Below, in pieces: positions 5,729-39,288 of a stretch of 59,768 nucleotides of DNA; the first letter of the stretch is position 1, and each line of letters begins with the position of its first letter. Below the pieces are notes generated by a model. It made no database searches. It was given only the letters and a program-made list of their open reading frames with translations, and was not told the origin of the DNA. Origin of the DNA: a virus (Duplodnaviria; Caudoviricetes); the IMG/VR virus record IMGVR_UViG_3300020200_000031, positions 1 to 59,768 of that record. One strand, 5' to 3'. Both the position numbers and the translations under genes were made by a program.

Positions 5729-8293
5729 TTACTTTTCTGGAAAATTACGCTTGAACCATGCAAGATTGGAATCGCCGCCCCTGCCACCCCCAGATTGCTC
5801 AGACCATTTTTTAAATGCGGGTTCATCTATCGCGCGGAAAACACCATTCTCTATTTTTGCAATAACCCTTGGTGCGGCGCCTGGCGGAATGTCCATGTCC
5901 CAGATGTACATATCTTGAATTTCGTTTCTATTTAGATGATTTGTCAACCAACCGTACATTTGTTGACCTTTAACCCTTATCAGGTCGACTGGCAATTGCC
6001 GTCCACCCTGAGCATTTCGAGCAGTCAAACGTTTTTCGGCTTTTTCATAGGGCAAAAACGGAATGTGAACAACTTTTTTGTAATTTGGGTCGGCCGTTGT
6101 TTTGTACTCGTAAAGACGATAACCCGTGCCTTCGGTGACGATATCCATTCCTTCATCAGCGGCGGCAGCAACAGTTTTTGTCGCACTTTTTGCTGATTCC
6201 CGATGAACGGAAACTGAACCCTTTCCGCCGTCATAACCAATGATTCCCTGTTTTATGAAATCGGGGTCTATATGAGCGGCTTCTGAGTTGGGTGGCATGA
6301 GCCCATTTTTGACTAGATGGTCAATAAGCGTTGATTTGCCAACGGCGCCCGGGCCAACGACATGATAATGAACCCGCGTGCCAGGTTTTTTATTTCTTCG
6401 GTCTTGGCGCACTCTTTCAAGAATAATTTGTCCCATTCTTTTTGCCCCAATGCCAACGAAGTTTTTAGTGTCTGGCATTGTTGATGACCTTAGTCCCCTA
6501 TTTTCTGGGCCATATTTTGAATAGAAGTTCAAAATGCGCTGCCATTCCACGTCGGTAAGGTCGCCATCCCTCTTGAATTTTTGGGCCAACGCATATGGAA
6601 CATTGAAACTTGGCTTCGAATTGGCCCAGTCGATGAAATGAATTTTTTGTCTTTCCGGCCACGTAGATGGGCTTGATTTGGCCATTTCGGACAGACTCAT
6701 GGAATTAGTGCTTGAGCGCAGCCCTCTAGCCGCATTCGTGTCGATATCGGGGGTCTTCGGGTCGACCGGGGTCGCCTTGTTTCCCGTGAACAGAAGATTT
6801 ATTTCTTCGTCCGACAAACCAAGTTTTTTTAATTTTGCAATGGAATTTTCAACCGTTTCTTTTCTCCGGTCTGCTTGACGAATAGGGTTTCCGCGTTCAT
6901 CGCGCTGAATCATTCCATCACCACGCTTCATTGGGTTTGCTGTTGAAGAAGACAAACCGCGAGAATCCAAATCCTGCTCGTTTCTTTCCAACGCCCTTCT
7001 CAGCAATTGACTTGCTCTTTGCTTGCTCACCTTCAATTCATCAGCAATATCTTGAATCTTTCCACCATTGGCTCGTATTTCCAAAATTCTGTTATCACGG
7101 TCATCAAGTTTGCCAACATTTCGGGTCTTGGGTTGGCTCGGCGTTTTGTCGGCAATCAACCACGCATCTCCAAAAATCAGCATGGGGTGAAGATTGAGTG
7201 CCGACATCACCAGTCTGTCGGCATCGAACGCATCGATTGATGCGTCTGGTTTGTGCATTGCGTCGATGACCTCCCTTGTCACCCCAAGAACTAATGCCTG
7301 TTCGTCTCGATTTTTGCGTAACCGCAATCTGTCAAAATTTAAAATTTCTTGCGCTTTTAATACCCCGCCCTTTTTAATTTTATTTGGGGTGAACCAGTTA
7401 TTTCTAACCGGAGATGCCCATCGTGGCTTACTCGTATCAATGCTGTCTGTCTCGCTGGCGAGACCACTTCTAATAGGGGCAACCATTTCTCTCCAGGTTC
7501 CATCAAAAATAATTCCGTCATTATCCATGTCGCGCCGTTTTTTGGGGTCTAAAACACCTTCGATTTTTTGTAGCGACCGACGCAATCCTCGGCTGGATAC
7601 ATTTGGTGTTACTGCGTGACCAATCGCCCTTCCGAGACCCTTGGTTCCATAAATTTCTTCAAAAAGAGATTTTTTACGCAATTTATTCTTGGAGGAATTT
7701 TGGAGTTCCCTACGAATAATTGTCCTAATCATTCGATTTTGAGATTCTCGTTGATTTCTTCTTCCCAAAAAAGTTGTTCCTGCAAGCCTGGCGTAATCGG
7801 TGTTATTGGTGCAGGGGAGCCATACTGTTCTTCCAGTCGCTGACGGCATTCTTCTAACGCCAATACACCCGAGCATCCTGCTACGTTTTCGTGCCGACTC
7901 TATGTCTACGAAAACATCCGGGTCATTATCCCGTGGCGATATGCCTGGGATATACGATTTGACGCCACCAGAATATATTGTTGAATTTATTGGTGCCGAA
8001 ACTATCCCGCCGCCCTCAAGCGTAGCAAAGCCGCCGAGCGGTTTGGTTTCTCTTAACTTTTCCCAGCCCTTTTTTTTATTTTTGCCCTTAGCGCGTCTTT
8101 TCAGATATCTTTCATTCATTTCTTGATATGCAGATTTTTTATCGGGTTCTGCGGCATTCGAAAGTCTTTCCAATTCCTCATGGGTTTCACACGGCATCCA
8201 TTTTCCGTCCATTTTGTGCGCACCGGAGCAGCCGACCCATTGTGCAACACGCAAAGCAAAAATCTTTGAATTTGTTTCAGGTTTTGCCGTCAT
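5729..8293 (-). CDS. Multidomain head-associated protein: Cys/His motifs, DxDxDG module, two HTH domains, C-terminal zeta-toxin-like P-loop kinase
   Basis: Walker A GPGAVGKST, HIDPDFIK, VHRES and DIVTEGT (zeta/PezT-like); IQDIADELKVSKQRASQLL (sigma region 4-like HTH); four RGLxSxT-type motifs. Confidence 0.75.
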   Translation of the reverse strand: MTAKPETNSKIFALRVAQWVGCSGAHKMDGKWMPCETHEELERLSNAAEPDKKSAYQEMNERYLKRRAKGKNKKKGWEKLRETKPLGGFATLEGGGIVSAPINSTIYSGGVKSYIPGISPRDNDPDVFVDIESARKRSRMLGCIGVRRMPSATGRTVWLPCTNNTDYARLAGTTFLGRRNQRESQNRMIRTIIRRELQNSSKNKLRKKSLFEEIYGTKGLGRAIGHAVTPNVSSRGLRRSLQKIEGVLDPKKRRDMDNDGIIFDGTWREMVAPIRSGLASETDSIDTSKPRWASPVRNNWFTPNKIKKGGVLKAQEILNFDRLRLRKNRDEQALVLGVTREVIDAMHKPDASIDAFDADRLVMSALNLHPMLIFGDAWLIADKTPSQPKTRNVGKLDDRDNRILEIRANGGKIQDIADELKVSKQRASQLLRRALERNEQDLDSRGLSSSTANPMKRGDGMIQRDERGNPIRQADRRKETVENSIAKLKKLGLSDEEINLLFTGNKATPVDPKTPDIDTNAARGLRSSTNSMSLSEMAKSSPSTWPERQKIHFIDWANSKPSFNVPYALAQKFKRDGDLTDVEWQRILNFYSKYGPENRGLRSSTMPDTKNFVGIGAKRMGQIILERVRQDRRNKKPGTRVHYHVVGPGAVGKSTLIDHLVKNGLMPPNSEAAHIDPDFIKQGIIGYDGGKGSVSVHRESAKSATKTVAAAADEGMDIVTEGTGYRLYEYKTTADPNYKKVVHIPFLPYEKAEKRLTARNAQGGRQLPVDLIRVKGQQMYGWLTNHLNRNEIQDMYIWDMDIPPGAAPRVIAKIENGVFRAIDEPAFKKWSEQSGGGRGGDSNLAWFKRNFPEK

Positions 8294-8301
8294 CGGCGAA
8301 C

Positions 8302-8700
8302 CTACTTTTTGTTGAATGCTTCGAGGGCGACCGCTTTAAGGGCAGCCAAACGTCGAGGGTAACGTTTTTGCATTAACCGCGCTTCTTCAAGGTCGTCTTT
8401 AAACTCCTCGTAAACACCCTTGAAGCATTTTCCCAAAAGGTCGCCACATTCATAAATATCACGGTCTCCCTTTTCTATGTTTATCCCGGAAACGGCGTCG
8501 CCCATTGCCTGCTGTAATTCCATTCCCCTTGTTGAAAGAGAAGGGAAACCCCAATCGGGATTCACACCATCAAAATCCATTGAGTCTCTACCATCGTCGA
8601 TTTCCGAAAACGGAGGATAGTTCATCAAAGCATTTAGTTCTCTTTCCTGCTGTTGCATTTTTCCTGCTGCTTTGTAGTAAGCATCATCTTGCATGGCCAT
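8302..8700 (-). CDS. Hypothetical protein (132 aa), possible partner/immunity protein of the upstream kinase protein
   Basis: GAGG RBS, starts 8 nt after the stop of 8709..14021; acidic. Confidence 0.6.
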   Translation of the reverse strand: MAMQDDAYYKAAGKMQQQERELNALMNYPPFSEIDDGRDSMDFDGVNPDWGFPSLSTRGMELQQAMGDAVSGINIEKGDRDIYECGDLLGKCFKGVYEEFKDDLEEARLMQKRYPRRLAALKAVALEAFNKK

Positions 8701-8708
8701 TTTTTACC

Positions 8709-11700
8709 TCACCCGTATCGTTTAATAATGTCATCGCGGCGCGCTATAAGTGTATCTGCAAGGATTTTCGCACGAGCCGGGTCGCTGACTATTGATTGAA
8801 CTGTTTTTCTGATGTCGTCATCGGTAATAGTTCCAAGTTTCTGAGTCTGCTGTTTTAACAGATTTCGGTCCATGTTTGAAAAGTCTACATTTCCGCCCCT
8901 TTTCTGAAGCGAAGTCATTTCCGTTACAGAGTTTCCAAAAGCCACTGTGCCCCCACTCCCCTTTTTGGTGCCTTGTGCCCTGTAATCCAGCGAACCGCCA
9001 ACATCGAGACGAACAGCCCTGCCGTTATTGTCGATTTTAATGTTGTCGTTTAATGGTGCATCCCAGTTTGCCAACCATGCGTCTATTACGAAACCTTTTT
9101 GGGCCTCGGCTTTATCGCCCGCTATGTGTGGCATTCTTGTTTGAATCATTCTGGAAAGCATCACTGGTTCGCCATTGTTTGTTCCCATGTTCAGGTCGGC
9201 TGCGGGAATGCCGGCAAGGTCGTATAGTTTTCCGGCCAACACTTCAGTTTCCATGCGCTCTTGTGCTTGCGCAATGGTTTCTGAAGGTTTTTTTAGTTTG
9301 GTGTAGTACTTAGTGCCATTTGGGTCAGTCAACAAAATTGCTGGATTGGAGCCAGTGTTTTGTGGCGTGCCCTTCGACCAAGCGTCTGTATTAATGGCGC
9401 TTTTGGAAATACTTGGCGCCGTTTGGGGTGTCGGCGCGGGCGTCGTTGGCGTTGAATCGTCATCAGGGTCGGGTCTCCGTGTTGATGGTCTTCGTTTGCG
9501 TCCAACACTACGCCCTGGGGTGATAGTGGCATCTGTGCGACCTCGGTCTTCACGATTCGCCCATAGATGCCATACGGCACCAATTCGCGAGCCATCGGGT
9601 GCTTTGGCTAATCTCTCGGCCTCATCTCTTGTTACTGGAATGTGGTACACGGCAACTCCAGTTCGGTTATGAATTAAGAATGGGTTTCCGACCCCCTTGT
9701 TGGAATTGGTATCAAAGCCATCAATACCAATAATTGGTGCGAAATAACCCTCTTCTTTTTGCTTGGTAAATCTATGCAAATAATCGATTGCCCCAAGAAT
9801 TCGTTTTCTTTCATTTGATGTATCGCCGGGAATCTTGTCAAGTTCTTCGAGTCTTTCAATCAATTGGCTTACAATTTGACCGCTTCTTGACGTTTCATTG
9901 GCCAAATTTGGAATTGCTTTTCTGAACTCCACCGCCAATTCGCCCGCAGATGTTGCTGCGGCACTGTCTCTTCCGCCCATGGTTTTAGTTACGTTGACAA
10001 GTTGTGTCGTTAAATTAGCCATCTTGTCGCGTTCACGTATGAGGTCATTTCGAGTTACAATATCTGCGCTTGGCGGTATCAGTACAAGCATGGAGTGTTT
10101 GTCGGTAGGTTTGCCGCCATATTGCGTCCAATGGCCGGGATAAGCAAAATATTCACCCACACCAAAGGCCCTCATCCCCTGTCCTGGGATAAATCGTGCC
10201 GCCTCATTCGTCAAGAATTGCTCGACGAAGCCTTCGCTCTCGATTTGTTGGTGCCCGGTACCCCTTATCACGGGTTGCCAACCGGCAGCAATCAACCTGC
10301 GCACCTCATCTTCGTTGACCAATGTGGGAAGGTCGGAATAACCGTTGTTCTCCCAAAGGTCGGCCAACAGTTGGTCGAATGCCTTTTCTCTTGCCTCGTC
10401 ACTAAGGGTTTTTGTGTCCTTGAGTTCACCGTCCAACTTTGCCAAAACATCGACAAAACTTGGTTTGATTTTTATTTTGCCAGTATTGTCAATAGACACC
10501 GTTGAGGTCTCGGCCTTAATTCGACCTATATCTGCGGCCAATTCATCTGCGTCTCGTGTACGACGGAACTTAGACAACATTTTTCGCTTCATTGCACGAG
10601 TACGAAGGCGCGTTTGTTTTATTTTAAGAGCAGGGTCTTCGATGGTGAGGATACGACCCTTTCTAAACCCACCCTTTCGACGCTCCGCTCTTTGTCGCGC
10701 CCTGGCCGCACGTGCTGGGTTAACTCGTAGTAATCTTTTTCCGAGGGCCTGTTTTTTCTTTTTACCGGTTTCTTCAGGATTCAATTCACCCACGCTCGCG
10801 GCCCTTTCAAGACCGCCTGCTTGTTTGAAAATTGATGAATCTTGCCCAGGGTTTGAAAACTTTTTAGTTGCTGGGGTGCCTACTGCTTTGGAGATTTTTT
10901 TTCTTGTGCCGGTATGGAAATGTTCCAACAAAGAAAAATCATCATTTTCTTCCATGTTTAACATCGTGACTAAATCTTCAAGAAATCTTTGAATCCTACC
11001 CGACTCACTCAATTGTGGTCGCCCCAGTTTGTCGAGTACGTACTCGCCGGTTTCCGCATTTATTTGAAATTTGTTGACTTTGCCTGAAACGATGTTTTCG
11101 TCGAGCATTTGCATCATCTCTCGAGCGTCGTTTTTTGTTAGTGGGTCATCAAACGGCCTGACCTTCTGTCGTCCGCCGGTTCCCCAGGCGCGTTGTTTCA
11201 CGGCCCGCAAAGATTCTTTATCAAGACCCTCTTCGGTTGCTTTTTGCCACCATTTTTTGTATGGTCCTGTTTTAAGGTATTTGACTATTTCGGCTTTTTC
11301 GGCAGCAATTGCTTCTTTGGTTTTTGTTCGGTCTTCTTCGGACATGGATTCCCAAAGGACCCCATCACCGTCTTGTTTTTTTACACCGCCGTTTTTCAGA
11401 ATCTGACTGAAATATATATTTCTCCTGGGTTTGGGTTTTGATTTTTCTACTTCAGTTCTTGTTTCTGGAAGCGTTGTGGTTGACCCCAAGCCTCTTGGTC
11501 GACTGGCGCGTTCGGTTGTGGCTGTCGCAATTCGACTCGATGTTGGTTGGGTTACAGGGCGACGTCGTGGCGATGATGTAGATGAACTCAAACTACGCTG
11601 TTTTAGTGCCTCGTTTCTAAGGTCCATTATTGCGATGCGGTCATCTTCGTCATCAATGCGTGTTATATCGAGGTTGTCAACCATGTTCAAAATCGAATTA

Positions 11701-14021
11701 ATTTCGTCTTTTGATAATTTCTCGCCTCGTTTGAGTTTTGCAATGGCGTTAACTGCGTCATCGAGGTCACTGCCCAAATCTGGGTCATCTGTTTCGGACC
11801 TCAAGCCTCGCCCTGCTTTTTCCTCAGGTTTTGTGCGTTTGATGGTCTTTTGTGCTCTTTCCAATATTTTTTTAAATTCTTCACGTTGTTTTTTGTTTTC
11901 TTCAAGAATTTGAAGCGACTCGGAACCTATTGGCTTATTTGGGTCTGTAGATGAAGACAGGCCACGTCGTTTTTTGCCAGCCAGGGCCCGCCTCAGGAAA
12001 GAGGGGGTCGGTTTTTGTTTAGGCGAGGAAACATCCTCAATAAGTCTCTGTATTCGCCTGTCATTGTAAAAGAGGTCGTTGTTGTCCGCAACGTCGTTCA
12101 ATGATTCCAAAAGCGACGCCCGCTCTTTGTCCGAAAGGGGTTTATCGGCAGCGAATTTTTCCAGATTTCTCGCAAACTCAGGTTCGGCGGTGCCGCGCAT
12201 AGCGTCTCGCAATTCCTTGATGATGTTTTGGCGGTCATCATCGCCGGCAGATGAAGACATTCGTTTGACATCGTCAATTAACTCCGCCAACCTGTCATCG
12301 TTTTGGAACGTTTCGTTGTTCTCGGCCATGTCCTGAAGGGTTTCAAGTAGTTCAGATTGTTCGTCGCCAGAAACCGACATACCTTTGGCGATTTTTCGTA
12401 GGGCTCTTTGAAGTTCCGGTTCTTGCGCACCCTCGGCCATTTGGGTGATGTCATCAATCAGGCCACCGAATCGCGTGGCCCGTCCTCGACCGTCTAGGTA
12501 TTTTTGTCTATCTTTTGATGTTTCGCCCAATTTACCCAGAGCAGACGCAACGGTTGCCTCCAATGCGTTCACCCTGCTTGATTTGTTTCCGTCGGGGTCA
12601 AATGCGGCAATTACCTTTACGGGGTTGACATCCCGACCGGAGGCGACTCCGTTTATGTATTCGGATAAAGCATTGAGTACGTCGGACGGATACCTTTCGG
12701 TCTCGTCTTTCGCCAAATCGGAGGCCACGCCATCAACCAAGTTCTTTATCAACTTCTGTCTATTTTTGGGGTCTGCTTTCTTGAAATCATCCTGTTGCGA
12801 TAGTGCCGACAATTTTGCCGTCACCGTTGAAACCAGGTTGCCGGAATTCGACCAATCGGCGCCATCTGCTTCCCACGCCTTCCTAAGTCCACTGTCCCAG
12901 TCAGCACCGCCCGCGTTGACGGAATCCATGAAGCCAATAGCGTCTACAATGCTTTGCCTGGTGCTTGACTCCAGTCCGCGTGGTTTCTTTTTGTCAACAA
13001 ATGAGGTTCTTGAGCGGTTGGCATAATCTCGTTTTTCTAATTCCTCGATTTCTTTCTCGTCTCCGGGCGTTCTGATTCCATAGCCACCGCCACGATTTGG
13101 AAGATTCATTCCCCCATCACGACGGGCCGCGAATCTTGTTGGGTCTGGCATTTCCCGCCACGTGCCATCGAAAATCATTCCGTCGCCATCAACGTCTCTT
13201 CTTAAACGTGGGTCTAGAACACCAGAAATTACCCGTGTTGCCCTTGACAAAGTATGTCGGCGTCTTCCACCGGGCAATCCAGGCCTGCCCGACGGCACAA
13301 GTGCTCGACCGGTTCTTCCTATTGCGTAGCCCAAGCGACTCTTAACAAAAAAATCCACAATTTCTTTGGTGTTTTTACCAATTTCATCGCGTTTAACTAA
13401 CGGGAGATTTTGTTTTACAAGAATATCTTTATTGATTATTTTTACAATTTCTCCACCAAATTTACGTTCATGACCTTTTGACATTTTTTGCTGTATTGCA
13501 TAACGTTCCGCCATTTGAGATGCGCGATTGGGCTTAGGATTAAATTGTTTGGTTTCATAATTAAACGCTAATTCATTTGTCCGAACCCTGAATCCAATTT
13601 CGCTCCTTATTGCCGATTGCCGAAAATGTTTGGCCTTGTAAGAAATAGCAGTTTTTTTCTTGTTTTGTGATGAAGGAATTTTTTTATTGGTAACCGTAGG
13701 ATATTTGGAGATATTGGGATACCTGATTGATTTCACCAAAAGTTGACAATTGTTCTGTGTTGCCAAAGAACCATTGACGGCCGCAATGTCTAGGCTTCCA
13801 ATAATTATTTTCTTCATCATTCCGTCAGACAAATTTTTAAATTCACCTACAGAAATTCCGACCGGCAAATCAGACAGTCCCAGATTATTTTGATTGGCCC
13901 ATTCTGACCATTCCACACCTTTATCGCTCCAACCGTAAAATTGATTGGAATCATCAGACCTAACAACTATGCCAAAATTGATGCCTCGATGGACATTTTT
14001 AAGTATTGCGTATTTTTTCAT
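8709..14021 (-). CDS. 1770-aa polyvalent protein with ART-like domain and C-terminal HipA/PI3-4K-like kinase domain
   Basis: Kinase motifs GSNP, KYYTK, EVLAGKLY, DAWLANWD, RLDVGGSL-YRAQG; ART-like VIRG...GQGMRAFGVGEYFA; DxDxDG module; five RGLxS-type motifs. Confidence 0.75.
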   Translation of the reverse strand: MKKYAILKNVHRGINFGIVVRSDDSNQFYGWSDKGVEWSEWANQNNLGLSDLPVGISVGEFKNLSDGMMKKIIIGSLDIAAVNGSLATQNNCQLLVKSIRYPNISKYPTVTNKKIPSSQNKKKTAISYKAKHFRQSAIRSEIGFRVRTNELAFNYETKQFNPKPNRASQMAERYAIQQKMSKGHERKFGGEIVKIINKDILVKQNLPLVKRDEIGKNTKEIVDFFVKSRLGYAIGRTGRALVPSGRPGLPGGRRRHTLSRATRVISGVLDPRLRRDVDGDGMIFDGTWREMPDPTRFAARRDGGMNLPNRGGGYGIRTPGDEKEIEELEKRDYANRSRTSFVDKKKPRGLESSTRQSIVDAIGFMDSVNAGGADWDSGLRKAWEADGADWSNSGNLVSTVTAKLSALSQQDDFKKADPKNRQKLIKNLVDGVASDLAKDETERYPSDVLNALSEYINGVASGRDVNPVKVIAAFDPDGNKSSRVNALEATVASALGKLGETSKDRQKYLDGRGRATRFGGLIDDITQMAEGAQEPELQRALRKIAKGMSVSGDEQSELLETLQDMAENNETFQNDDRLAELIDDVKRMSSSAGDDDRQNIIKELRDAMRGTAEPEFARNLEKFAADKPLSDKERASLLESLNDVADNNDLFYNDRRIQRLIEDVSSPKQKPTPSFLRRALAGKKRRGLSSSTDPNKPIGSESLQILEENKKQREEFKKILERAQKTIKRTKPEEKAGRGLRSETDDPDLGSDLDDAVNAIAKLKRGEKLSKDEINSILNMVDNLDITRIDDEDDRIAIMDLRNEALKQRSLSSSTSSPRRRPVTQPTSSRIATATTERASRPRGLGSTTTLPETRTEVEKSKPKPRRNIYFSQILKNGGVKKQDGDGVLWESMSEEDRTKTKEAIAAEKAEIVKYLKTGPYKKWWQKATEEGLDKESLRAVKQRAWGTGGRQKVRPFDDPLTKNDAREMMQMLDENIVSGKVNKFQINAETGEYVLDKLGRPQLSESGRIQRFLEDLVTMLNMEENDDFSLLEHFHTGTRKKISKAVGTPATKKFSNPGQDSSIFKQAGGLERAASVGELNPEETGKKKKQALGKRLLRVNPARAARARQRAERRKGGFRKGRILTIEDPALKIKQTRLRTRAMKRKMLSKFRRTRDADELAADIGRIKAETSTVSIDNTGKIKIKPSFVDVLAKLDGELKDTKTLSDEAREKAFDQLLADLWENNGYSDLPTLVNEDEVRRLIAAGWQPVIRGTGHQQIESEGFVEQFLTNEAARFIPGQGMRAFGVGEYFAYPGHWTQYGGKPTDKHSMLVLIPPSADIVTRNDLIRERDKMANLTTQLVNVTKTMGGRDSAAATSAGELAVEFRKAIPNLANETSRSGQIVSQLIERLEELDKIPGDTSNERKRILGAIDYLHRFTKQKEEGYFAPIIGIDGFDTNSNKGVGNPFLIHNRTGVAVYHIPVTRDEAERLAKAPDGSRIGAVWHLWANREDRGRTDATITPGRSVGRKRRPSTRRPDPDDDSTPTTPAPTPQTAPSISKSAINTDAWSKGTPQNTGSNPAILLTDPNGTKYYTKLKKPSETIAQAQERMETEVLAGKLYDLAGIPAADLNMGTNNGEPVMLSRMIQTRMPHIAGDKAEAQKGFVIDAWLANWDAPLNDNIKIDNNGRAVRLDVGGSLDYRAQGTKKGSGGTVAFGNSVTEMTSLQKRGGNVDFSNMDRNLLKQQTQKLGTITDDDIRKTVQSIVSDPARAKILADTLIARRDDIIKRYG

Positions 14022-14023
14022 TA

Positions 14024-16087
14024 TTAACCGCTAACTACTTTGCTGATTGCTTCATTGCTCGCAATGAGTTGTTGTAATCTATTTTCATAGAGTTTTCCGA
14101 GAATATTTAAATGGATTTTTTCTCCAGAGGACAATCTGCTATCGTTGTAAAGTTTTGTTTTAAAATTATTAAAACTGAATTCCCTGGCGCGTTTAATAAG
14201 TGTAGCAATAAATTGCAAAGTCAGGCCGCGTTGGGTAGCGCGAAGTTTCTCGAAATACTGTTTGTAAAGTTGTAATTGAGAAACAGTAAGAAGTTTTTCG
14301 ATGTTCTCTTCGGTTCTTTGTGTAATTAAAATTTTTGACAACTCGATTAAGCCAGCGCCGTCATTTGACGTCGGAACAATTTTAATTTTGTTATTAATGT
14401 TCGCAATGTCGACAGAGCCAGGATTTCTATTTTGAACATCTGTTAACAGGTCGGAAACAAAAAGTCTTGCGGTTTCCTGCCAGGGTGCGTTGCGAAATGT
14501 CAGATTATCGTCAATTTTTCCACCACGTGAAACTATTGTTGAATCTTCTGTTAGGTATCGACGAGAGTCTCCCGCGCCAACAAACAACACATTTGGGGAT
14601 TTTAAACCTAGGTGTTGCTGTATTTCGGAAACAAATCTTTGGGAAAGGGCTTCAAATTTTTTGGGGTTTGATTTTTCAATATATTTGTCGCCATTTGGTA
14701 GGGAAACCATAGTTCGTGAGTCGGAAATTTTTTCGCGTTTTATGTTGTTTGCCTTTGCCATAGCCTGCTGCAAAATCTCGGGCGAAATTTCAACAAGAGA
14801 ACCGCCGCGTGTGATATGTGCAATGGCACTTGTCAGCGTCGTGATGTCGTCACCCAACGGAGCCGAGGATGGGCTAATTGGCGCTTTTTCCGTTGCTACT
14901 TCTTCAACGGCTTTTGGCACTGGTTTAACTTTTCGTTTACTAAAGGCCATTGTCGCCCATTTTTGGCGGCCGTCTTTTACAATTTCATTTGGATTTTTAA
15001 TCCCGACAAATTTTTCGGAATACTTTATTCCCTCGCCGGTTTCCATCGCAACCATTTTTAGACGAGCCGCAGGGTCTGAGGTGTTACTAGATTCGATTGC
15101 CGTGTTAACGGTTCGACCCAGTTTTCTTCTTTCCCCAATCGTAAGTGGACGAACTTTTTCCAGAGTTAGTTCATGGCCACCGGGGAGAACATACTTAAGA
15201 CGAATGATTCCGGTATTTGATAGTAAACCAAGTTCGTCTTTACCAATAAGGTCAGGGCTAAGCACGCTCATTATGTATGTTGCGCCCTCCATGTCCCTGC
15301 TGTCGGGAATTGTTCTTAAGACTGAGGCGGGTACGACCGGCTCCAAGACAAACCCGTCTTTACGAACCATGCGAGCCACTGATTGGTCAGTCGCACTAAG
15401 TGGCTTGACTAGTTTTTGAATTTCTGCCATTGCTTTTGCCGGATTGGCGAGCGAAACCCGCGGAATCTGTGGCGCCCTTGAAACGTCTGCCGAGAGCGGC
15501 ATTTGGCCCGCCCCAAGAGTCGTGCTGGCAATATTTCCCGATGGCATTTCTCTTGCGATTGTTCGACGAATCAATGAAATTGCGGCACCCAATGGCCCGG
15601 CAATAATGAACAACTTTTGTCCGCACGTTGAAAACTTATTATCCGTAAAACGTCCACCGTATTGAAAGCCCTCTGGGCATCGCGAGACACCGTCACCCGC
15701 GCCACGTCTCATGCCCGGAACGCCCGGAATGCCCGGAGTCAGCAACCTGGTCACCGATGAGCGGATTGGGCTTCGCACTATGCTCAGGTTTCCCGGAGTA
15801 AGAGTTGACCCGACCGCCTGAACTGCCTGAAGTACTGGATTGTTGCTACTTACAAGGCCGATTCGTTTAAATTCAAATTCGCGGTTTCGACCAGACCTTT
15901 TGATAAGGGCTTTATAGGAAATAAGTTGTGGGCTTGTCGCCCCAAAATTTTTCATAATCTGGGTTGGACTTTGGCCGTTGTTTATGAAGACGGTTCGAAT
16001 TTTTTTGATTTCCGTCGATGGGCAGCAAAGGCTCTTGTTTGTTAGTTGCTTGACTTCCGAAATTATAAATTTGTTTTTCATGGTCAT
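14024..16087 (-). CDS. ~687-aa head-associated protein with RCPxG motif and degenerate HipA/PI3K-like C-terminal domain
   Basis: ATG at 16087 overlaps the upstream TGA (ATGA). RCPEGFQYGGRFTD motif; C-terminal KYIEK...QHLGLKSP...LFVSDLLTDVQNRNPGS. Confidence 0.6.
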   Translation of the reverse strand: MTMKNKFIISEVKQLTNKSLCCPSTEIKKIRTVFINNGQSPTQIMKNFGATSPQLISYKALIKRSGRNREFEFKRIGLVSSNNPVLQAVQAVGSTLTPGNLSIVRSPIRSSVTRLLTPGIPGVPGMRRGAGDGVSRCPEGFQYGGRFTDNKFSTCGQKLFIIAGPLGAAISLIRRTIAREMPSGNIASTTLGAGQMPLSADVSRAPQIPRVSLANPAKAMAEIQKLVKPLSATDQSVARMVRKDGFVLEPVVPASVLRTIPDSRDMEGATYIMSVLSPDLIGKDELGLLSNTGIIRLKYVLPGGHELTLEKVRPLTIGERRKLGRTVNTAIESSNTSDPAARLKMVAMETGEGIKYSEKFVGIKNPNEIVKDGRQKWATMAFSKRKVKPVPKAVEEVATEKAPISPSSAPLGDDITTLTSAIAHITRGGSLVEISPEILQQAMAKANNIKREKISDSRTMVSLPNGDKYIEKSNPKKFEALSQRFVSEIQQHLGLKSPNVLFVGAGDSRRYLTEDSTIVSRGGKIDDNLTFRNAPWQETARLFVSDLLTDVQNRNPGSVDIANINNKIKIVPTSNDGAGLIELSKILITQRTEENIEKLLTVSQLQLYKQYFEKLRATQRGLTLQFIATLIKRAREFSFNNFKTKLYNDSRLSSGEKIHLNILGKLYENRLQQLIASNEAISKVVSG

Positions 16088-16743: not shown

Positions 16744-17200
16744 CTTTGGATTTTTTCTTTCTTTTTCCCTTTTTAAATTTTTGTCCAGGGGCTTCAATCC
16801 AATTTGCAATCATTTTTTGAGACCATTGACCGGTATTTTTTGCAAGAACGAAATCCATCGCCCTGTTTTCGAATTCCAAAGACTTTGCCTGTCTTTGTAA
16901 AACATCCTTGACAATTATCGCACCGGTCAAAAGTTCTTCACGAATCGGCAAGGATTTACTTACAAAAACAGAATACCAGTGAATATTTGTTTTAGACTGA
17001 TGACCGTTCCATAGGTAATCATGGAATTTAGTATTAAGAATTTTTTGCATTTGGGGATGGCTGTCAACATATTCCCAAAAACCTTCCACACTTATATCTC
17101 CCACCTTGTTTTTAACAACACAATCGGCATCAGGACAAATTGAATCGACAATAAAATATATTTTATTACTATCAGATTTTCCCACAAGTATTGACTTCAT
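16736..17200 (-). CDS. Hypothetical protein (154 aa)
   Basis: ATGA overlap with the stop of the 3209-aa gene (translational coupling). Confidence 0.65.
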   Translation of the reverse strand: MKSILVGKSDSNKIYFIVDSICPDADCVVKNKVGDISVEGFWEYVDSHPQMQKILNTKFHDYLWNGHQSKTNIHWYSVFVSKSLPIREELLTGAIIVKDVLQRQAKSLEFENRAMDFVLAKNTGQWSQKMIANWIEAPGQKFKKGKRKKKSKDG

Positions 17201-20200
17201 GCCCGTACAAACTCTTTGCGCTCATCTTGGTTTTGACTAATTCGTCGCGCGCGTCTACGGCCAATTTTATCAGATTTCTTATTTTTGGCCAATAATGGCA
17301 TTATTGCAAAAGCCAAAACAATTGGGTCTAAATCTTCTAGATTTATAGAATTCTTCACATTGGCAGATTTGATATTTAGCCCAAGTTTTTCAATTAAGGG
17401 TAAAAGAGTTTCTCGGGAAATTTCTGCCGGTAATTGCCAGTTATGTGGCATAACTTGCTCTATAGGCTTTCCGCTTACGTCATGTGTCCGGCTCATTCTG
17501 GCTCCCTCTGTCCTAATATCTGGCGCCCTGGAAAATAAAAACCAAGAAGCGAATGCCTCGGCCAATCCTTCTGTCGCTTTTGAGGCGGCATAACGAGTGG
17601 CCGCTATACGCTTCTCTATTTCCTCCGCCCGCAATGCTGAATGAAATATTTCGTCAGGGTCTCCACCCAGGTTTATCGTTTGACCCTTGCTGATTAAGCG
17701 TTTTAATAAATGTCCCATTAGCGACGGCATCCTTATTTTTGATGCGCTTTTATCTCTTACGCTGAAATCGAGTAAATGGCCGAATTCATGAATCATTGAA
17801 CCGTAGGCAATCCTTCCTGCGATTTGGCCAGTCAATTCTTCTAATTTATTTGGGTCATCATATGAGACATCATATTTTGGCAATCCCAATTTGCCAAACG
17901 CTACCGGTGTTGAACCCCCGGGGGCCAAAATTTGAACTTCCCCCCGCGCCCCAAAAGTCCCTCGACGGGGTTGATAGTGTTGACCCCAGTTCAGGGAAAC
18001 AATTTGTCTTGCGGCATCTTTAATTTCGGCGGCATTTATATCAATACGCGTTTTGTGTTTGTTGCCTTCTTTAAATCTTTGCGCTCTAAAAAATTTTACT
18101 CGAGGACCAAAGGTGCCAAAAACGCTGGTTGGTACAAAAATTTCACTGCGCCCTTCAATCCCACCATCTGTAATATTTACTGAAAAATTGTTGTCTTTTA
18201 GAAGTAGTTTCATTCCCGGTACATTCGAAAGTAGGTCATCTAGGGCCTGCACGGCTGCATAGCCCGCGAAATTGGTTGCCAACGGTCTTCCGTTTTTGTC
18301 TTTTTCTTTAAATAATGATTTAGACATCTCCACATCTATTCCATAGGTTTTTTTGAAATATTTTCGGACCTGTTTTGGCGAATAGCCAAATTTTTTCTTA
18401 AGATTTTCTGGCGCTTCAACCCTGGGAATGCCTAATTCGTCTCGTCCGTGTGGCAACTCAAGGGGTCCTTGGTCTAATTTTTCCGCGCTGCTTCTATCGC
18501 CAGGTTTGAAATTTTCCCCAAACCACGAATCTGTTGACGTGCTGCTTGCCAATCCCCTTGTACCGCTTGCCGATTTTTGCAATGATTTTTTTGGCTTTAG
18601 GTCATCAATTTCTTTGTTTGAAGCAACACTCATATTGTTGTCAGACAAAAGTTTTCTTATTGTTTCTGCCCCCGCCCAACCGATGACATCAACAAGTTCA
18701 TGCTCTTCCGATAAACCGCTGATTTTCATAGAATTCGGATACATGCCACGACTTTCCCAGTCAAGTCCTTCGTGATTCAAAAATGTAACTTTGGGTCGCT
18801 CTTCAGGACTTTCTGCAATCAGTTCCCGAATTCTTTGCCGTTCGCTTAGGCGTCCGATTAGACGTGCCCTGGCAGAAATTTCGTCGCGTAACTCTTTAAT
18901 CAATTTTTCGGAATATTGATTGTCCTTATTTTCAATAATTTTTTGCAATAGGCTAAGTTCTGATTTTGATAAATATTTTCCAAAAAAATCTTCTATGATT
19001 TTCTCATCAACTTTTCTGGTGTCGCGCTGACCGGGGTGTATCGCATCACCATCATTTTTCATATGTCGCCTTTGAAACTCAGGTTCAATACGGATTTCTT
19101 CTACGTCATTCATATCAAATCCGCCCGCCACTATTGCTTCGATGTAGAAGCGATAATCCTTATCAATGCTTGTGAGGTGTGCAAAATCGTTTGAAACACT
19201 TGCTTCTAAAAGATTTATAAATCTTTGTTGTTCAGAATCGGGAATATGCGCGTGCGTGGTTCGAAACCGGGCTAGGTATCTATTTAATATTGCCGCCTCG
19301 AGCAATTCGTCATCGGTTGCCGAACCATCGAGGCTGACGGGTGTTCGCATGCCACTAAAAGAATCACCAAAAGTCACCAACGAACGTTGTGCAGTTTCCG
19401 GTTTTAAGATTATTTCAGAGTGCCCATATTGCCTTGGAAGCGAATCGACAAGTTTCCCTTCAAAAGAATTTGGGTCGTCGATTCTCTTGTCGCCAACGCT
19501 GTCTTCGTCGCCAATAGCAATTATTTCGAGCAAATTTGGGACACTCTCTTCGATTTCTTTGATTTTTTCTGACTGTTGTTTCGCGCGGTTTTTTAGGTGT
19601 CTTTCATTAAATTTCTGTTCGTCAGGATGTTTCAAAAATCCGTGCGCGGGTCTAATCGTATTGCGCGCCTTTGAAGGGATACCCAAAAGTAATTCAATGT
19701 CTTTTCTGTCAGCGGATTCAGATGATGCCGTACTTTGTCCTCCGAACTGTCCTAATTGTCGGGGGTCATGTGTTGTCTTCCATTTTTTATCTTTTATAAA
19801 GCGGTATAATGGTGATTCGTCCGGTGAATCTCCTATCCCTTCATCTGAGATTCCGCGAATTCTAAATATTGGACGTTTATCTAATCCGTCTATATATTTT
19901 CTTACCGAATTAGCCGCAATCTTTTTAATTTCTTCTGGAGAATTGTTTCGAAGAAGTTCTAAAACTTCTGGGCTCACAGGCCTGCCGTAATTCCATTCCT
20001 CTACAATTTCGCCCGTTTTTGCTTTATCGATTGTCTTATTAATTACTTCATTGAATCGAACCTTCGCTTCTTCGTGACTCTCATATCTGGCATCATCCGG
20101 AGTAACAACACCGAAAGGGTTGTTTCTTTTTTCGACCCAATCTTTGCGTTTTTTTTGCTTCTCAGCCAATGCTTCCCCACTTGGTTTCCCAAATTTAATT

Positions 20201-28359: not shown

Positions 28360-31300
28360 TCAAACATCGTCAACCGGTTTTGTAGTTTTGTCGACAAAGG
28401 TAGACATTGCTGCTGACGCAATTTTTTCAAGTAATTCAGCAAATATTTCTGCCCTACTTCCAACTCCGCCACCCTTCCCTGCGGTTTTTTGTCTATCAAT
28501 TATTTCCATTACGGCGTCAAGAATTTGGTCAGCCTCGTCTGCTGAAATTTTGATTGAGCCCACATTTGTTCTTTTTGAGTTCGGCCGAAATGCGGCGGCT
28601 TCGTATTTTTTAATTTTTTCCTGAAGTATTGTCAAGCCTTTTTGAGTCAATTTTGAATCGGCTTCCCGAATCTCTTTGCCCAAGGAATCATCTATCTTTT
28701 TCCACCAAGTCGATTCATTAATAATTTCAGTTCTTGGCCGCTTTGTGGGGGTGGTTGAAGATGAAAGACCCCTACCGCCTTGTTTTTTGAATCTGTTTGT
28801 TTTTTGGAAACGACGGGCCTTGTTTATTGAATTATTAATCGTGGTGCTGCTAGGAAGGCCGCGGTCATCATAATCATCGTCGTCGCCGCCAAAGCGACTA
28901 TCAAGATTGTCTTCATCACGACCAACATCAAATTCATCAGGGTCGTCATCGTCTTGTTCAAGACGGCCCGACCTATCAAGTCGCCTACCCGACGCTCCGG
29001 CGCCGCTAATCATGTCTTCTTCCCCCAGGTCTTCTTGAGTATCGCTGCGCCGTTCTCCACCAAAATCGTCAAGAAGTTCTCGAATCTGGAACAAATAGTT
29101 ATGCACACCCTCTTCTGCCTTGTTAAATTTGCCTTTTCTGACGTCGTCATTTTTTAGTTTTGCAATTTCACGCAAACCCTCATCCAATTCATCAAGGGCT
29201 TCTTTGACCGACTCTGGGTTAGGGCGGTTGTTGTCGCCGCCATCGTCCGGAAAAGCCAACGCCATAACCCTGTCTATAAGGTCGATTGAGGCGGTCTCAA
29301 AATCGCTTCCCACCTGTTCTTTATCTTTGTTGGCCCTGCGTTGTTTGAAGAATTCCTCAAATGTGCTCCTGTACGCCGTCAACTTTTCTTCTAGTTCGCT
29401 ATTCCCCGATTTTCGAGGGCTTGTTTTGGGCGCGGGTTTTTTCTCTTCGGGCTTCGGGGTGTCCGGTTTAGCCGGTCTTTGATTTGACACCTGCGGTCTT
29501 GGGCGTCTTTCGCTCTCTATCTCGCGAAGACCTTTTCCCGATTCTCTTCTGAGACTTTCGTCTAACAAATAGTCATCAAATCTTTCGAGGAAGGCCTGCC
29601 ATTTTACGGCCCTATTTCGTTTCTTTAGGGCTTCATGATTTTTTACGAACCAGGCATATTGAGCATCGAAATCCATTTTGTCAAAATCTTCTGGGAATAT
29701 TCCTATATCTATGTAGGGTTTAAGTAAATTCTGACCTTTGTGGATGTAACTAATTTTTTTTCTACTGCTTTGCATTGGGTCCGGTTCAATGTGGAATGGT
29801 GGATTTTCCAGATTCTTGGGATAACCTGTGGATTTTTCCTTTTCGGCAGCCTTTTGCCCGGCACGTGTGTCTACGCCCCTCTTAATTCTTCGTTGGCCAA
29901 CAATTTCCTTGTCGCCAAGTTTTGTTTTGGGGCCAATTCGTATTTTTTTAGTAGGCGAAGCGGGTGCTTTTGATTTGTTTTTGCGTTCGAACTGGCCTGT
30001 TTTTACCAATTCATCCAAAATTCCAAATGCTGTGTGGCCTTTTTCATTATTTGCTTTTAAGTCAGCCACGCCGCCAAGTTCTTTAAATTCTTCACTAATT
30101 TGAGGCCATATTTCTTTGAATTTTGCCAACATTTCTGTATCTATTTTTGGCAAAAGAGTAGCATCATCAAAACGTGATGCCTCTTTTATTTCTTTAGCAA
30201 ATTGTTCAACAATTGTTGGTGGCGATGTAGAATTTTTAAGAAAATTATCAAACATTCTTACTAATCTGTTCTTCGATTTTCTAGGAATAAAAAATAGCAC
30301 AACTTCTCGGGGTGGTTTTTGTTCTGCCCATGCTTTCCACCACGTTTTGCCCCATTTCTCTTTAGGAAATGACTCTTTTTTAGGCTTATATCTATAAATT
30401 GGGTGGGGGAGGGGGGGGTTGTGGGTGGGAGATTTTGGAACTTCTGTATCTGAACTTAAACCTCGGTCGAAAACCCTTGTTGGGGCTGGCATTTCTCGCC
30501 ACGTCCCATCAAAAATTATGCCATCGTTGTCAACATCGCGGCGTTTTCGGGGGTCTAGTTCCCCTGTAATTTTAGCGAGCGCGGCCCTGCCGCGCCGAAC
30601 TTTTCCCCCACCACCCGGCACCAGCCTGCGACCAATTCGCCCTATTAAATTTTTGGTTGCAGTACCAATTGCTTCATGAGCATCATCATTAAGTGGGGAC
30701 ACCAATAAAATTCCGTCCTCGGTTACAACGGTTTCAATTCGGTGAAAATCAAAAAGAGGGTCAAGTGCTTGTTTTGTTTCAAAAGCGCTTTCGGGAGCAC
30801 ATGGAATAAGCCATGCATCTTCTTCGGTTTTTACACTAATCATATTTTGTAGAGAATTGGTGATTTCTAAAAGTTGCTGCGTTATTTCTTTTTGTTCCTG
30901 CTCCACAAGTTTTTTATTAAAAATGATGTCTAGGTCTATTTCCGATTTTGAAGAATCAAAAAACCCACTTTGGGTGTTTGAGTCACCATATTTAACGGGG
31001 ATAAGTGGCGTGCTGGGTATATACGGTTTTCTTTGAACGTTTGGAAAATTTGGAATTCGCTGCCCGGGTCTCATGCCTGGATTTGTGGTTGGCATTCCGG
31101 GCATTGGTCTCTCAATTACAACTGGGGAAGTAACCTGCTCAGGCTTGCCAAACATCCATTGATTTCCGTCAAAATGATAGGCAAGCCTAAAAATTCCTTT
31201 TCCAGGTTTTACAAAAAGAACAAAACTTTCCGTCGCTTTCATAACCTTGATTGGTCCACCGGTTCGAGAAGTTAGTTCTTGCTGGAGAGCCAAGATACGG

Positions 31301-31920
31301 TCATTATTGGCCGGCTGAGCAATCCCTTGGGCGAATGGGTCATTTGGTGTCTTGGGTTCTTCAATGGCTACTGCGGTGATGCCGCCCATTGGATACATGT
31401 GAACTTTTTCTTCTTCGCCTTTTACCGAGATTGTTCCGGTTAATTGATTGGCGCCATGCAAAACCGGACTTAACTCGTAAAGTTCCACCTCCCTAAGAAC
31501 ATTTGCTTGCCTACTGTTGTCAAAAATGGCATCAAGTGTTTTATATCCAATAGACCATTCTTGTTCTTCGCCAAAAAATGCAACGTTTGTAAATGCCTCT
31601 TTACCTTTTTCTGAATTCAAATTAAATTGAATTTTTGCGTACAGGCCGCCGATTCCGGCAATTTTCATTTTTTCTGGAAGACGTGGGTCGTTTGATGGAA
31701 CCTCGTAAATTTCCAATACTTTGCCAATTGGGTCATTCCAGTTATGGCCCCAAACCACACGCGGTTTTCTGCGTGTAAGGCTCTTTTGAAAAGCCCCCGC
31801 AACAACGATGTCGCCAACGCTGTCTTTGTTGCCGATTCCGGCCACAAAACATTCAACAATCCCCTGAGCCTCGTCTATGTTGAATTGCCCGTTATTTGAC
31901 TTAAATTGTATGTCTTGCAT
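28360..31920 (-). CDS. HK97-family prohead protease (peptidase S78) with ~1000-aa C-terminal extension
   Basis: GNKDSVGDIVVAGAF, WGHNWNDPIGK, WSIGY, LREVELYELSPVLHGAN; extension holds a DxDxDG module and three RGLxS motifs. ATG at 31920 preferred. Confidence 0.9.
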   Translation of the reverse strand: MQDIQFKSNNGQFNIDEAQGIVECFVAGIGNKDSVGDIVVAGAFQKSLTRRKPRVVWGHNWNDPIGKVLEIYEVPSNDPRLPEKMKIAGIGGLYAKIQFNLNSEKGKEAFTNVAFFGEEQEWSIGYKTLDAIFDNSRQANVLREVELYELSPVLHGANQLTGTISVKGEEEKVHMYPMGGITAVAIEEPKTPNDPFAQGIAQPANNDRILALQQELTSRTGGPIKVMKATESFVLFVKPGKGIFRLAYHFDGNQWMFGKPEQVTSPVVIERPMPGMPTTNPGMRPGQRIPNFPNVQRKPYIPSTPLIPVKYGDSNTQSGFFDSSKSEIDLDIIFNKKLVEQEQKEITQQLLEITNSLQNMISVKTEEDAWLIPCAPESAFETKQALDPLFDFHRIETVVTEDGILLVSPLNDDAHEAIGTATKNLIGRIGRRLVPGGGGKVRRGRAALAKITGELDPRKRRDVDNDGIIFDGTWREMPAPTRVFDRGLSSDTEVPKSPTHNPPLPHPIYRYKPKKESFPKEKWGKTWWKAWAEQKPPREVVLFFIPRKSKNRLVRMFDNFLKNSTSPPTIVEQFAKEIKEASRFDDATLLPKIDTEMLAKFKEIWPQISEEFKELGGVADLKANNEKGHTAFGILDELVKTGQFERKNKSKAPASPTKKIRIGPKTKLGDKEIVGQRRIKRGVDTRAGQKAAEKEKSTGYPKNLENPPFHIEPDPMQSSRKKISYIHKGQNLLKPYIDIGIFPEDFDKMDFDAQYAWFVKNHEALKKRNRAVKWQAFLERFDDYLLDESLRRESGKGLREIESERRPRPQVSNQRPAKPDTPKPEEKKPAPKTSPRKSGNSELEEKLTAYRSTFEEFFKQRRANKDKEQVGSDFETASIDLIDRVMALAFPDDGGDNNRPNPESVKEALDELDEGLREIAKLKNDDVRKGKFNKAEEGVHNYLFQIRELLDDFGGERRSDTQEDLGEEDMISGAGASGRRLDRSGRLEQDDDDPDEFDVGRDEDNLDSRFGGDDDDYDDRGLPSSTTINNSINKARRFQKTNRFKKQGGRGLSSSTTPTKRPRTEIINESTWWKKIDDSLGKEIREADSKLTQKGLTILQEKIKKYEAAAFRPNSKRTNVGSIKISADEADQILDAVMEIIDRQKTAGKGGGVGSRAEIFAELLEKIASAAMSTFVDKTTKPVDDV

Positions 31921-31943
31921 CCGCATTCCTTTGCGACTTAGCA

Positions 31944-31979
31944 ATGATAAACGAATTTAGTCTCTATCCATTGAAGGTA
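31944..31979 (-). promoter_or_regulatory. Putative promoter TACCTTCA-N22-TATCAT
   Basis: Intergenic between portal and protease; next to a 9-bp inverted repeat atttctgta / tacagaaat (31979-32012). Confidence 0.35.
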
Positions 31980-38957: not shown

Positions 38958-39288
38958 GTCAAAACCGATAAGCCAAGTTGAAATCGAGCAAGAATTGTTG
39001 CGAATGATGGACATGTTGGAACAAGAAACCGAGGCATTTGAAAAACTTGCAGAAGATTCTGCAAAGAAAGAAGCGCTATTTAAAGCAAATTGGGCCAAAG
39101 AATATCTTTCTGCAAAAGGTTCAATCAAAGAACGCGAGGCTTGGGCTGATTACAAAATGGCTGATTTAAATTATGATTACAAAATTTCAGAGGCTTTGGT
39201 AAAATCGAAGCGAGAAAAATTATTATCCCTTCGAACATCAATGGATTCTTTGCGAACCCTTAATGCAAACGTCAGGGTACAGGTGTGA
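38947..39288 (+). CDS. Hypothetical coiled-coil protein
   Basis: 113 aa, helical, overlaps both neighbours. Confidence 0.7.
   Translation: MMGRSKPISQVEIEQELLRMMDMLEQETEAFEKLAEDSAKKEALFKANWAKEYLSAKGSIKEREAWADYKMADLNYDYKISEALVKSKREKLLSLRTSMDSLRTLNANVRVQV

Follow-up and report, generated by a model that had tools for sequence, protein, structure and literature searches.

Recurring RGLxSST-type sites in giant head-module proteins of a metagenomic myovirus, probable targets of its own HK97-type prohead protease

The processing of head-internal proteins by prohead proteases is already known, and so are the giant polyvalent proteins of phages. The T4 protease gp21 cuts after I/L-x-E (PMC12991175). 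The protease gp245 of phage SPN3US cuts after A-X-E (positions P3 to P1, with P1 directly before the cut) and prefers Ser at P1′; 14 sites were mapped in nine proteins of this phage and the protease is itself self-cleaved (PMC10052503). For pseudorabies assemblin the sites YLQA-T and VQA-S are given (PMC4498786). Polyvalent proteins are predicted to accompany the DNA, with peptidases embedded in them as the processing enzymes; assemblin-like peptidases are described as rare among them and "always" C-terminal, and the accessible sections of that study name no cleavage signal (PMC5512222). Here we describe a short motif, R-G-L-x-S-[SEDT]-T with a few near-variants, that recurs 18 times in four large proteins of the virus record IMGVR_UViG_3300020200_000031, a linear IMG/VR record of 59,768 bases which we analyzed over its whole length and call the window. 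One of the four proteins begins with an HK97-type (S78) prohead protease domain. Most likely, as judged from sequence, the motif copies are a set of protease processing sites that turn the giant proteins of the head module into many proteins.

The completeness of the window is estimated at about 40% (CheckV). We regard the phage as a myovirus because its plus-strand genes include a large terminase and a tail sheath; this strand encodes further genes as well. Read from right to left, the minus strand carries the portal gene, a protease open reading frame (ORF) of 1194 amino acids (aa), eight ORFs of 459, 3209, 154, 241, 690, 1770, 132, and 854 aa, and the major capsid gene. All sites lie in only four proteins, each encoded on the minus strand in the interval from the portal gene to the major capsid gene: the protease protein (28360–31944), the 3209-aa protein (17197–26826), the 1770-aa protein (8709–14021), and the 854-aa protein (5729–8293). 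A sequence-only reading of the window had listed 18 sites, and each of them translates as written. The protease protein has RGLSSDT (30445–30465), RGLPSST (28843–28863), and RGLSSST (28753–28773). In the 3209-aa protein there are six copies: RGLASSA (25987–26007), RGFASRS (23965–23985), RGLASST (23008–23028), RGLASST (21367–21387), RGGLASST with one additional Gly (20281–20304), and RGLASST (18538–18558). The five copies of the 1770-aa protein read RGLESST (12960–12980), RGLSSST (11946–11966), RGLRSET (11790–11810), RSLSSST with Ser in place of Gly (11577–11597), and RGLGSTT (11475–11495). The 854-aa protein carries RSGLASET (7448–7471), RGLSSST (6941–6961), and two copies of RGLRSST (6707–6727 and 6479–6499). 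Thirteen of the 18 match the strict 7-mer exactly; the five near-variants are RSGLASET, RSLSSST, RGLASSA, RGGLASST, and RGFASRS. RGFASRS, in which Phe takes the hydrophobic position, is the weakest site of all and still fits the shorter core G-[LFM]-x-S.

The feature is real and statistically overwhelming. By chance 0.0028 strict copies are expected in the 7027 residues of the four proteins and 0.007 in the 18,872 residues of 42 translated ORFs. In 2000 shuffles the mean was 0.002 strict copies and the maximum 1, and a six-frame scan of the whole window found the strict 7-mer at these 13 places only. The motif is thus far from background frequency in the proteome (13 strict copies against 0.003 expected in the four proteins). 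Scanning with a position matrix built from the 13 sites gave a bimodal result: 28.9–35.4 bits for the 13 sites, 9.7–16.8 bits for three variants (RSGLASET 9.7, RSLSSST 14.1, RGGLASST 16.8), and a top score outside the four proteins of 5.5 bits. Searching the four proteins for the bare core G-[LFM]-x-S gives 17 occurrences, each of which is a listed site. The sequence-only reading had seen no copy in plus-strand tail or replication genes, and no plus-strand ORF has one in the ORF and matrix scans; it was also right that the codons vary between copies. Since the codons differ, conservation is at the protein level; the flanks of the copies are unrelated to one another. Three G-L-x-S matches in the 690-aa protein were considered as extra sites and rejected: they have no Arg or Ser-Thr context, and two of them are invariant conserved sequence in relatives.

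We consider it probable that the motifs are cleavage sites of the HK97-type S78 prohead protease, situated in flexible linkers of head-module polyproteins. The protease protein itself is central to this argument. Its ORF of 1194 aa starts at TTG 31944, and the likely real start is ATG 31920 (1186 aa), where the homologues and the database copy begin (MQDIQFK). We count residues from TTG 31944, which adds 8 to each residue number compared with the likely real protein. The S78 domain comprises residues 28–172 (31429–31863, minus strand; PF04586 Peptidase_S78, 3e-10; phrog_80, head maturation protease, 5e-28), and the match to TIGR01543 (2.9e-12, 46.9 bits) lies under the cut-off of 59 for this model. 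Residues 12–175 are nearly all invariant in 13/13 aligned homologues, among them His67 and Ser131, which by analogy presumably form the catalytic pair. The gene is located in the head module between the portal and capsid genes. The first ~494 residues are conserved and followed by a site; then come a variable, highly charged middle part and two sites, and the chain closes with about 130 residues that form a conserved C-terminal domain. The motif copies in the chain of the protease are at residues 494, 1028, and 1058, and these positions are conserved in homologues: the core is kept in 9/12 at RGLSSDT, found near the position in 6/12 at RGLPSST, and kept in 11/12 at RGLSSST. The C-terminal domain (residues 1063–1194, 28363–28758, PRTEIxxESTWWKKI...) is conserved across the family, has no Pfam match and no usable ESM Atlas hit, and is proposed to be a scaffold or capsid-binding part.

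The assemblin fold is assumed to be common to HK97-type S78 proteases. As in the herpesvirus pUL26/assemblin proteins, the protease here is the N-terminal part of a longer assembly protein, with one site after the conserved N-terminal part (release-like, RGLSSDT) and one just before the conserved C-terminal part (maturation-like, RGLSSST). Compared by sequence layout only, the conserved and variable parts and the sites of the protease protein match the herpesvirus protease-scaffold order. The sites are also alike in having a hydrophobic P3, a free P2, and a small P1. There are differences, however. Herpesviruses have two or three sites, whereas the window phage has about 18 and its relatives up to 23 per chain; P1 is Ala in the herpesviruses and Ser in the phage family; the phage chains have unrelated cargo modules between the sites; the C-terminal piece is a short tail there and a domain of ~130 residues here; and the window phage has three further predicted substrate proteins without a protease.

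A search with residues 1–500 retrieved at least 633 database proteins at E ≤1e-10, which are 656–2090 aa long and annotated only as "HK97 family phage prohead protease" or unnamed. The family is thus large. Site counts were made on the best 120 of these at least 633 proteins, and in all 120, as in the window, the protease is N-terminal. The anchor of the C-terminal domain is present in 96 of the 120, and 86 of these 96 have [LFM]-x-S 12–19 residues upstream, against a chance background of 532/1920 random windows (28%). The other ten have GMRAT (nine proteins) or GARST (one protein), that is, Ala at P1 or P3. Therefore every anchored member has a site-like element. An exchange of Ser for Ala at P1 would suit a pocket for small residues.

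Further relatives were collected in two IMG/VR scans. One, for capsid homologues, yielded 43 surrounding loci; the other, for protease homologues, had 306 matches and yielded 80. As a family signature the strict 7-mer had to be rejected, as only 11 of the 123 related loci have any copy. In the window the RGLxSST motif is real; seen across the family it is the local flavour of a wider core, [G]-[L/F/M]-x-S. The phenomenon is wider than the window phage; hundreds of relatives from metagenomes have this core as well. In 113 distinct ORFs of at least 800 aa from 102 related loci we count 411 instances of G-[LFM]-x-S against 127 in shuffles; in 837 shorter ORFs the numbers are 221 and 132. In homologue alignments the window sites match shorter look-alikes (GLRSE, SLRSG, TLRSSG, RLASGR) in linkers full of insertions and deletions. 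For seven sites, [LFM]-x-S is found within 12 residues at 49/72 homologue positions, and the background at random positions is 51/1782 and 297/3060 (3–10%). Within the 854-aa family, the core is kept in 7/9 homologues at RSGLASET, lies within 12 residues in 3/9 at RGLSSST, and is kept in 5/9 and 8/9 at the RGLRSST copies 6707–6727 and 6479–6499.

Each genome has one coherent flavour, and neighbouring genomes differ. The contig of loci L059 and L002 has 24 copies ending in S-G-[R/G/T] (RLxSGR flavour), and L053/L004 has 21 copies of L-R-S-[S/G]-[G/T/R]. The flavour of L086/L005 is G-L-x-S-S-T as in the window, and L115 has 23 copies of G-[M/F/L]-R-S in a single protease-fused ORF of 3661 aa. 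The motif also emerges without any prior as the commonest gapped 5-mer of a locus: LxSST in the window (12 copies), LxSGR in L002 (11 copies), LxSSG in L004, L006, and L053 (8 copies each), and GxRSR in L115 (19 copies). A separate observation concerns L002/L059, whose capsid protein is 95% identical to that of the window; in the protease polyprotein, identity reaches only ~50% over the best aligned segment, and the motif flavour is different. Judged from this sequence comparison, evolution or recombination is much faster in the cargo region than in the shell.

The variation of the flanks bears on a reading in which the motif is never cut. It could be a short linear motif of linkers, such as a docking or sorting signal for the portal, the scaffold, or the shell, or a site of Ser/Thr phosphorylation or glycosylation. 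Location in linkers and strong conservation at the protein level would suit any short linear motif. The Arg four residues before the Ser resembles, as we take it, the sites of basophilic kinases, the 854-aa protein has a P-loop kinase-like domain, and the genome flavours imply that the flanks are shaped by something besides the protease core. But family-wide conservation is limited to the hydrophobic-x-Ser core and extends neither to the Arg nor to the Ser-Thr tail, and Zeta_toxin/AAA_33-type domains are not a protein kinase family. Nor do we see a clear rationale for a docking signal which is repeated up to 23 times per chain and always at module boundaries, and the architecture parallels that of known protease-scaffold proteins. 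We consider an uncut motif improbable.

The position of the sites argues for processing. In the 854-aa family all four sites are at local conservation minima with 13–126 inserted alignment columns (13–20 at RSGLASET 7448–7471, 126 at RGLSSST 6941–6961); another linker of the same type in this family, at residues ~381–401, has no motif. In the flanks of 17 sites the fraction of order-promoting residues is 0.22 compared to 0.275 at random positions, and 9 of 5000 random sets were as low. The placement in linkers rests on these alignments and on residue composition. BLAST coverage profiles show that similarity to relatives begins and ends at the sites. Of 447 internal BLAST endpoints, 156 are within 20 residues of a site, whereas 60.5 are expected; the endpoints derive from related and non-independent sequences, so that the nominal P value is not a true probability. 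The enrichment is seen in three proteins. The exception is the 1770-aa protein (13 against 16.8 expected), where homology stops ~50 residues ahead of the first site at a module shared with other proteins (see below). In the protease protein the coverage by relatives falls from 70–85 to 13–24 at RGLSSDT (30445–30465). In the 3209-aa protein it steps from 42 to 23 over residues 226–276 (RGLASSA, 25987–26007), drops at RGLASST 23008–23028, and has minima at residues 1801–1826 (RGLASST, 21367–21387) and 2126–2176 (RGGLASST, 20281–20304). The Pfam domains of the 854-aa protein are each in a separate inter-motif segment. The sequence-only reading had proposed a cleavage or sorting signal. With its linker position, the homology breaks, and the conserved core, the motif looks like a signal for processing at the boundaries between modules; for sorting there is no specific support.

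Sites at module boundaries might also be functionless remnants of duplicated linkers that were spread along with shuffled modules, and modules are clearly shuffled among proteins and genomes. One homologue of the 854-aa protein (L003:6777-9839) has an additional module of ~125 residues between two motif copies, NTLRSEG and NTLRSSG. This extra module looks like a cassette that was inserted along with its own site, and the second copy it brought along would fit such a remnant. On the other hand, the codons differ between copies, the flanks are unrelated, and each genome holds to a single flavour though neighbouring genomes differ. Moreover, the core persists at aligned positions at 40–70% protein identity, despite the surrounding linkers being rewritten. 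A motif without function is therefore hardly credible to us.

We now turn to the proteins which the sites would divide. Few segments of the four proteins receive a name from Pfam, PHROGs, or NCBIfam, and most stay unannotated; scanning ten inter-motif segments singly at E up to 0.5 added nothing credible. In the 854-aa protein Pfam finds DUF3721 (residues 16–38, 6e-15), Sigma70_r4 (residues 395–437, 2.9e-5), and a Zeta_toxin-like P-loop kinase (residues 629–772, 9e-7). An RDExG...LGxxDEEI module of this protein is also present in 22/119 protease fusions. The 1770-aa protein has no match in Pfam, PHROGs, or NCBIfam and no PDB sequence match below E 0.1; its kinase-like C-terminal module (residues 1513–1769) is found inside 6/119 protease fusions (best E 2e-35). 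For the 3209-aa protein we find a weak Pfam match to KTSC, a match to phrog_2859 at residues 1990–2122, and no PDB sequence relative below E 0.1. This protein has two zincin-like HExxH motifs, HEVTH at residues 663–667 (24826–24840) and HEFGH at residues 3013–3017 (17776–17790), as well as a ParB-like motif, DGHHR, which is conserved in homologues. Thus the 854-aa and 3209-aa proteins each hold several unrelated effector-type domains or motifs in one chain next to virion genes. Some protease fusions of relatives have helix-turn-helix, pentapeptide, ArdC-N, or MPTase-PolyVal Pfam domains. Independently of the motif, residues 136–184 of the 690-aa protein (15545–15691, minus strand) and residues 196–240 of the 3209-aa protein (26107–26241, minus strand) have a weak RCPxG...FTD...C patch in common (BLASTP E 0.003).

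Three of the four motif-bearing proteins share a module of ~65 aa. By BLASTP it is found at residues 429–501 of the protease protein (30442–30660), where it ends at the first motif copy, at residues 234–300 of the 1770-aa protein (13122–13322), and at residues 216–283 of the 854-aa protein (7445–7648), where RSGLASET follows directly. In two of the three proteins the first site thus comes immediately after it. The E-values between the proteins range from 1e-11 to 7e-16, with 7e-16 and 1.5e-14 for the protease copy against the other two. The consensus is LDPxxRRDxDxDGxIFDGTWREMPxP with a calcium-loop-like DxDxDG, and distant relatives keep the module as WDGDGDGxVQEGTPFxRPxxP; no Pfam match was found. 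The module may be a capsid-targeting or docking element that brings the stand-alone chains into the procapsid.

We suggest that the processing would proceed as follows. The protease protein would combine protease and scaffold in one chain as herpesvirus pUL26 does. Many relatives carry cargo modules (DNA-binding, kinase-like, zincin-like, ParB-like, and others without known function) inserted into it between the sites, each module bounded by a site; the protease-fused ORFs of relatives are 1900–3900 aa long. In the window phage most of the cargo is instead located in the three additional proteins of 854, 1770, and 3209 aa, two of which could be recruited to the procapsid by the ~65-aa module they have in common with the protease protein. 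After closure of the procapsid the protease would cut the ~18 sites and leave ~20 separate pieces inside the head. The register would be a hydrophobic P3 (Leu in the window; Leu, Phe, or Met family-wide), a free P2, Ser at P1, and Ser or Gly at P1′, with the cut after the Ser, R-G-L-x-S/S-T. Such a register agrees with the sites cited above for the protease clan (pseudorabies assemblin, SPN3US gp245, and T4 gp21). All of these points, from cleavage, its enzyme, and the scissile bond to packaging and the delivery of the pieces to the host, we infer from sequence. A protease in cis and cargo modules that are common with the protease fusions are among the features that suggest this scheme.

Several points weigh against the prohead protease as the reader of the sites, and some of them speak for another enzyme. 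The evidence in its favour comes from sequence alone. The homologues were gathered by protease similarity, so that the finding of an always present protease is partly circular. The capsid protein is the canonical substrate of HK97-type proteases, yet the major capsid protein of the window (438 aa; 4267–5583, minus strand; HK97 fold family; PF05065, 1e-41; phrog_10, 4.5e-61), with an N-terminal extension of ~130–165 residues, has no G-[LFM]-x-S and no matrix hit. If it is cut, the site would have to be of another kind. The closest look-alike, SGLEAM at capsid residues 61–66, was dismissed, since it is without Ser and in a helical-looking stretch. Genomes with near-invariant protease domains bear different flanking flavours (RGLxSST, RLxSGR, LRSSG). 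The P3 class (L/M/F) changes at least 10 times when placed on a tree of 51 protease domains, and no column of the conserved core follows it; co-variation therefore gives no support for the S78 protease as the reader. The motif and the shared ~65-aa module are both absent from Gordonia phage Chidiebere and its kin. Finally, both HExxH motifs of the 3209-aa protein are conserved, HEVTH as HExxH in 19/19 and HEFGH in 6/6 of the homologous ORFs that cover the respective region.

These HExxH motifs, the capsid protein without a motif, and the flavours that do not follow the S78 core would fit if the sites were cut by another protease, either a zincin module of the 3209-aa protein, in the head or after ejection, or a host protease. 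The cut would then probably fall between the Gly and the following Leu, Phe, or Met; a cut before a hydrophobic residue would suit many zincins. In one relative, P0109, the S78 protein also contains the Pfam domains ArdC-N and MPTase-PolyVal. The metallopeptidase domains of polyvalent proteins have been proposed to process these proteins in the head or in the host (Iyer et al. 2017; PMC5512222). But only 3 of the 120 protease fusions have any HExxH, and 46 of the 49 with six or more sites have none. Thus a zincin in cis is not needed, and one encoded by a different gene would have to do the cutting in trans. Sites flank the zincin modules just as they flank other cargo, the invariant Ser, replaced by Ala in 9 proteins, suits P1 better than P3′, and sites are found at the release-like and maturation-like positions of the protease's own chain. 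We therefore regard cleavage by a zincin or a host enzyme as unlikely, and cleavage by the S78 protease remains the reading we prefer.

How would an S78-processed locus compare with other processing systems? T4 and the phiKZ/SPN3US-like giant phages likewise have one head protease, many internal proteins, and a short P3-x-P1 motif. There the cut is after Glu and mostly removes N-terminal propeptides of single-function proteins. In contrast, the window phage would have Ser at P1, a conserved signal of 5–7 residues, and sites between the modules of multi-module chains, and the products would be many different proteins. The T4 protease is of the gp21 family and that of the window of the S78 family. 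A T4-type N-terminal targeting peptide with I/L-x-E is not what we find: the window sites are internal, 3–6 per protein, and have Ser instead of Glu. The polyvalent proteins (PMC5512222) are similarly very large, multi-domain, and encoded beside virion genes, with DNA-binding, ParB-like, kinase-like, and zincin-like parts; they differ in that here the protease is N-terminal and the modules are delimited by a defined recurring site. Pfam detects no polyvalent-specific family in the window proteins, including signature families such as MPTase-PolyVal (PF18818) and ArdC-N (PF08401); these two are both present in the relative P0109 (precomputed Pfam). The polyproteins of positive-strand RNA viruses (3C/3CL, NS3-type) also have an embedded protease and many copies of a short virus-specific signal between units. 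They arise from the expression of an RNA genome, whereas here ordinary ORFs of a double-stranded DNA myovirus are concerned and the likely purpose is the loading and release of capsid cargo. The comparison with RNA viruses is functional and does not imply homology.

What differs from the known systems is the number of sites, the Ser at P1, the genome-specific signal of 5–7 residues, and the N-terminal protease. In the open-access literature we found no description of the motif, in line with the sequence-only reading, and none of protease-led phage polyproteins. A recurring signal that divides giant proteins, with the protease in the same chain, would link the processing of head proteins with the polyvalent proteins and would show how one phage packs many effectors in fixed proportions. 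The simple rule of looking for [G]-[L/F/M]-x-S in the linkers that follow an S78 domain breaks up thousands of residues of unannotated "dark" phage protein into units which can be studied separately. It also makes the specificity of HK97-type proteases directly testable with a reporter and the ~500-residue protease part, and it suggests a natural modular system for loading cargo into capsids. More tentatively, we envisage a large clade of uncultured myoviruses in which the protease-scaffold protein serves as the carrier for a changeable train of anti-host modules. The joints would be the protease's own cleavage signal, so that a single assembly step could load, and a single enzyme set free, as many as some two dozen different proteins for injection. 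The long and genome-specific signal (5–7 residues) may keep the protease too narrow to trip host sensors of prohead-protease activity. Host sensing of this activity is reported for the cyclic-oligonucleotide-based defence system CBASS (PMC12991175).

Several features of the surrounding genome should be mentioned. The closest cultured phages are Brevibacterium phage Cantare and Gordonia phages of the Chidiebere/GMA6 kind, with capsid proteins 43–46% identical to that of the window. The protease genes of these phages align only with the first ~180 residues of the window protease protein. Chidiebere was dropped as a proteomic stand-in: portal and protease are separated by distinct genes, and motif and shared module are missing.

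The portal protein (32012–34033, minus strand; PF04860, 5e-50; phrog_2662, 2e-60) forms the upstream boundary of the head module, and the capsid gene the downstream one. At portal residues ~415–445 (window ~32700–32800) there is a run of PGM repeats (GMPGMPGMPGMP), and in many related loci no gapped 5-mer is commoner than the PGM repeat. The C-terminus of the portal (32012–32032, minus strand) reads AWGFAN-stop in the window, with the conserved form W-x-F-A-[S/N]. In relatives (loci L067–L120) the tail is AWGFAS-stop in 11 loci, AWSMGSRM-stop in 12, and AWSMGSNI-stop in 9. This tail is like the P4–P1 side of the motif, ending at the Ser or 2–3 residues beyond, and could be a product-like docking tail or a coincidence. 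We considered it as an independent proof of the scissile bond and dropped it, for the window ends in W-G-F-A-N and other relatives end otherwise.

Between the protease gene and the gene of the 3209-aa protein lies the gene of the 459-aa protein (26850–28229, minus strand), which has a long Asp/Glu-rich stretch, a weak match to PepSY (E 1.6e-5), and no motif copy. On the plus strand, the genes located between the terminase and tail sheath genes include a ParB-like nuclease/partition gene (39285–40079; phrog_723, 1.7e-39), and the next gene after it (40076–41224; phrog_2302, 1e-75), in the same interval, is similar to 3′-phosphoadenosine 5′-phosphosulfate (PAPS) reductases.

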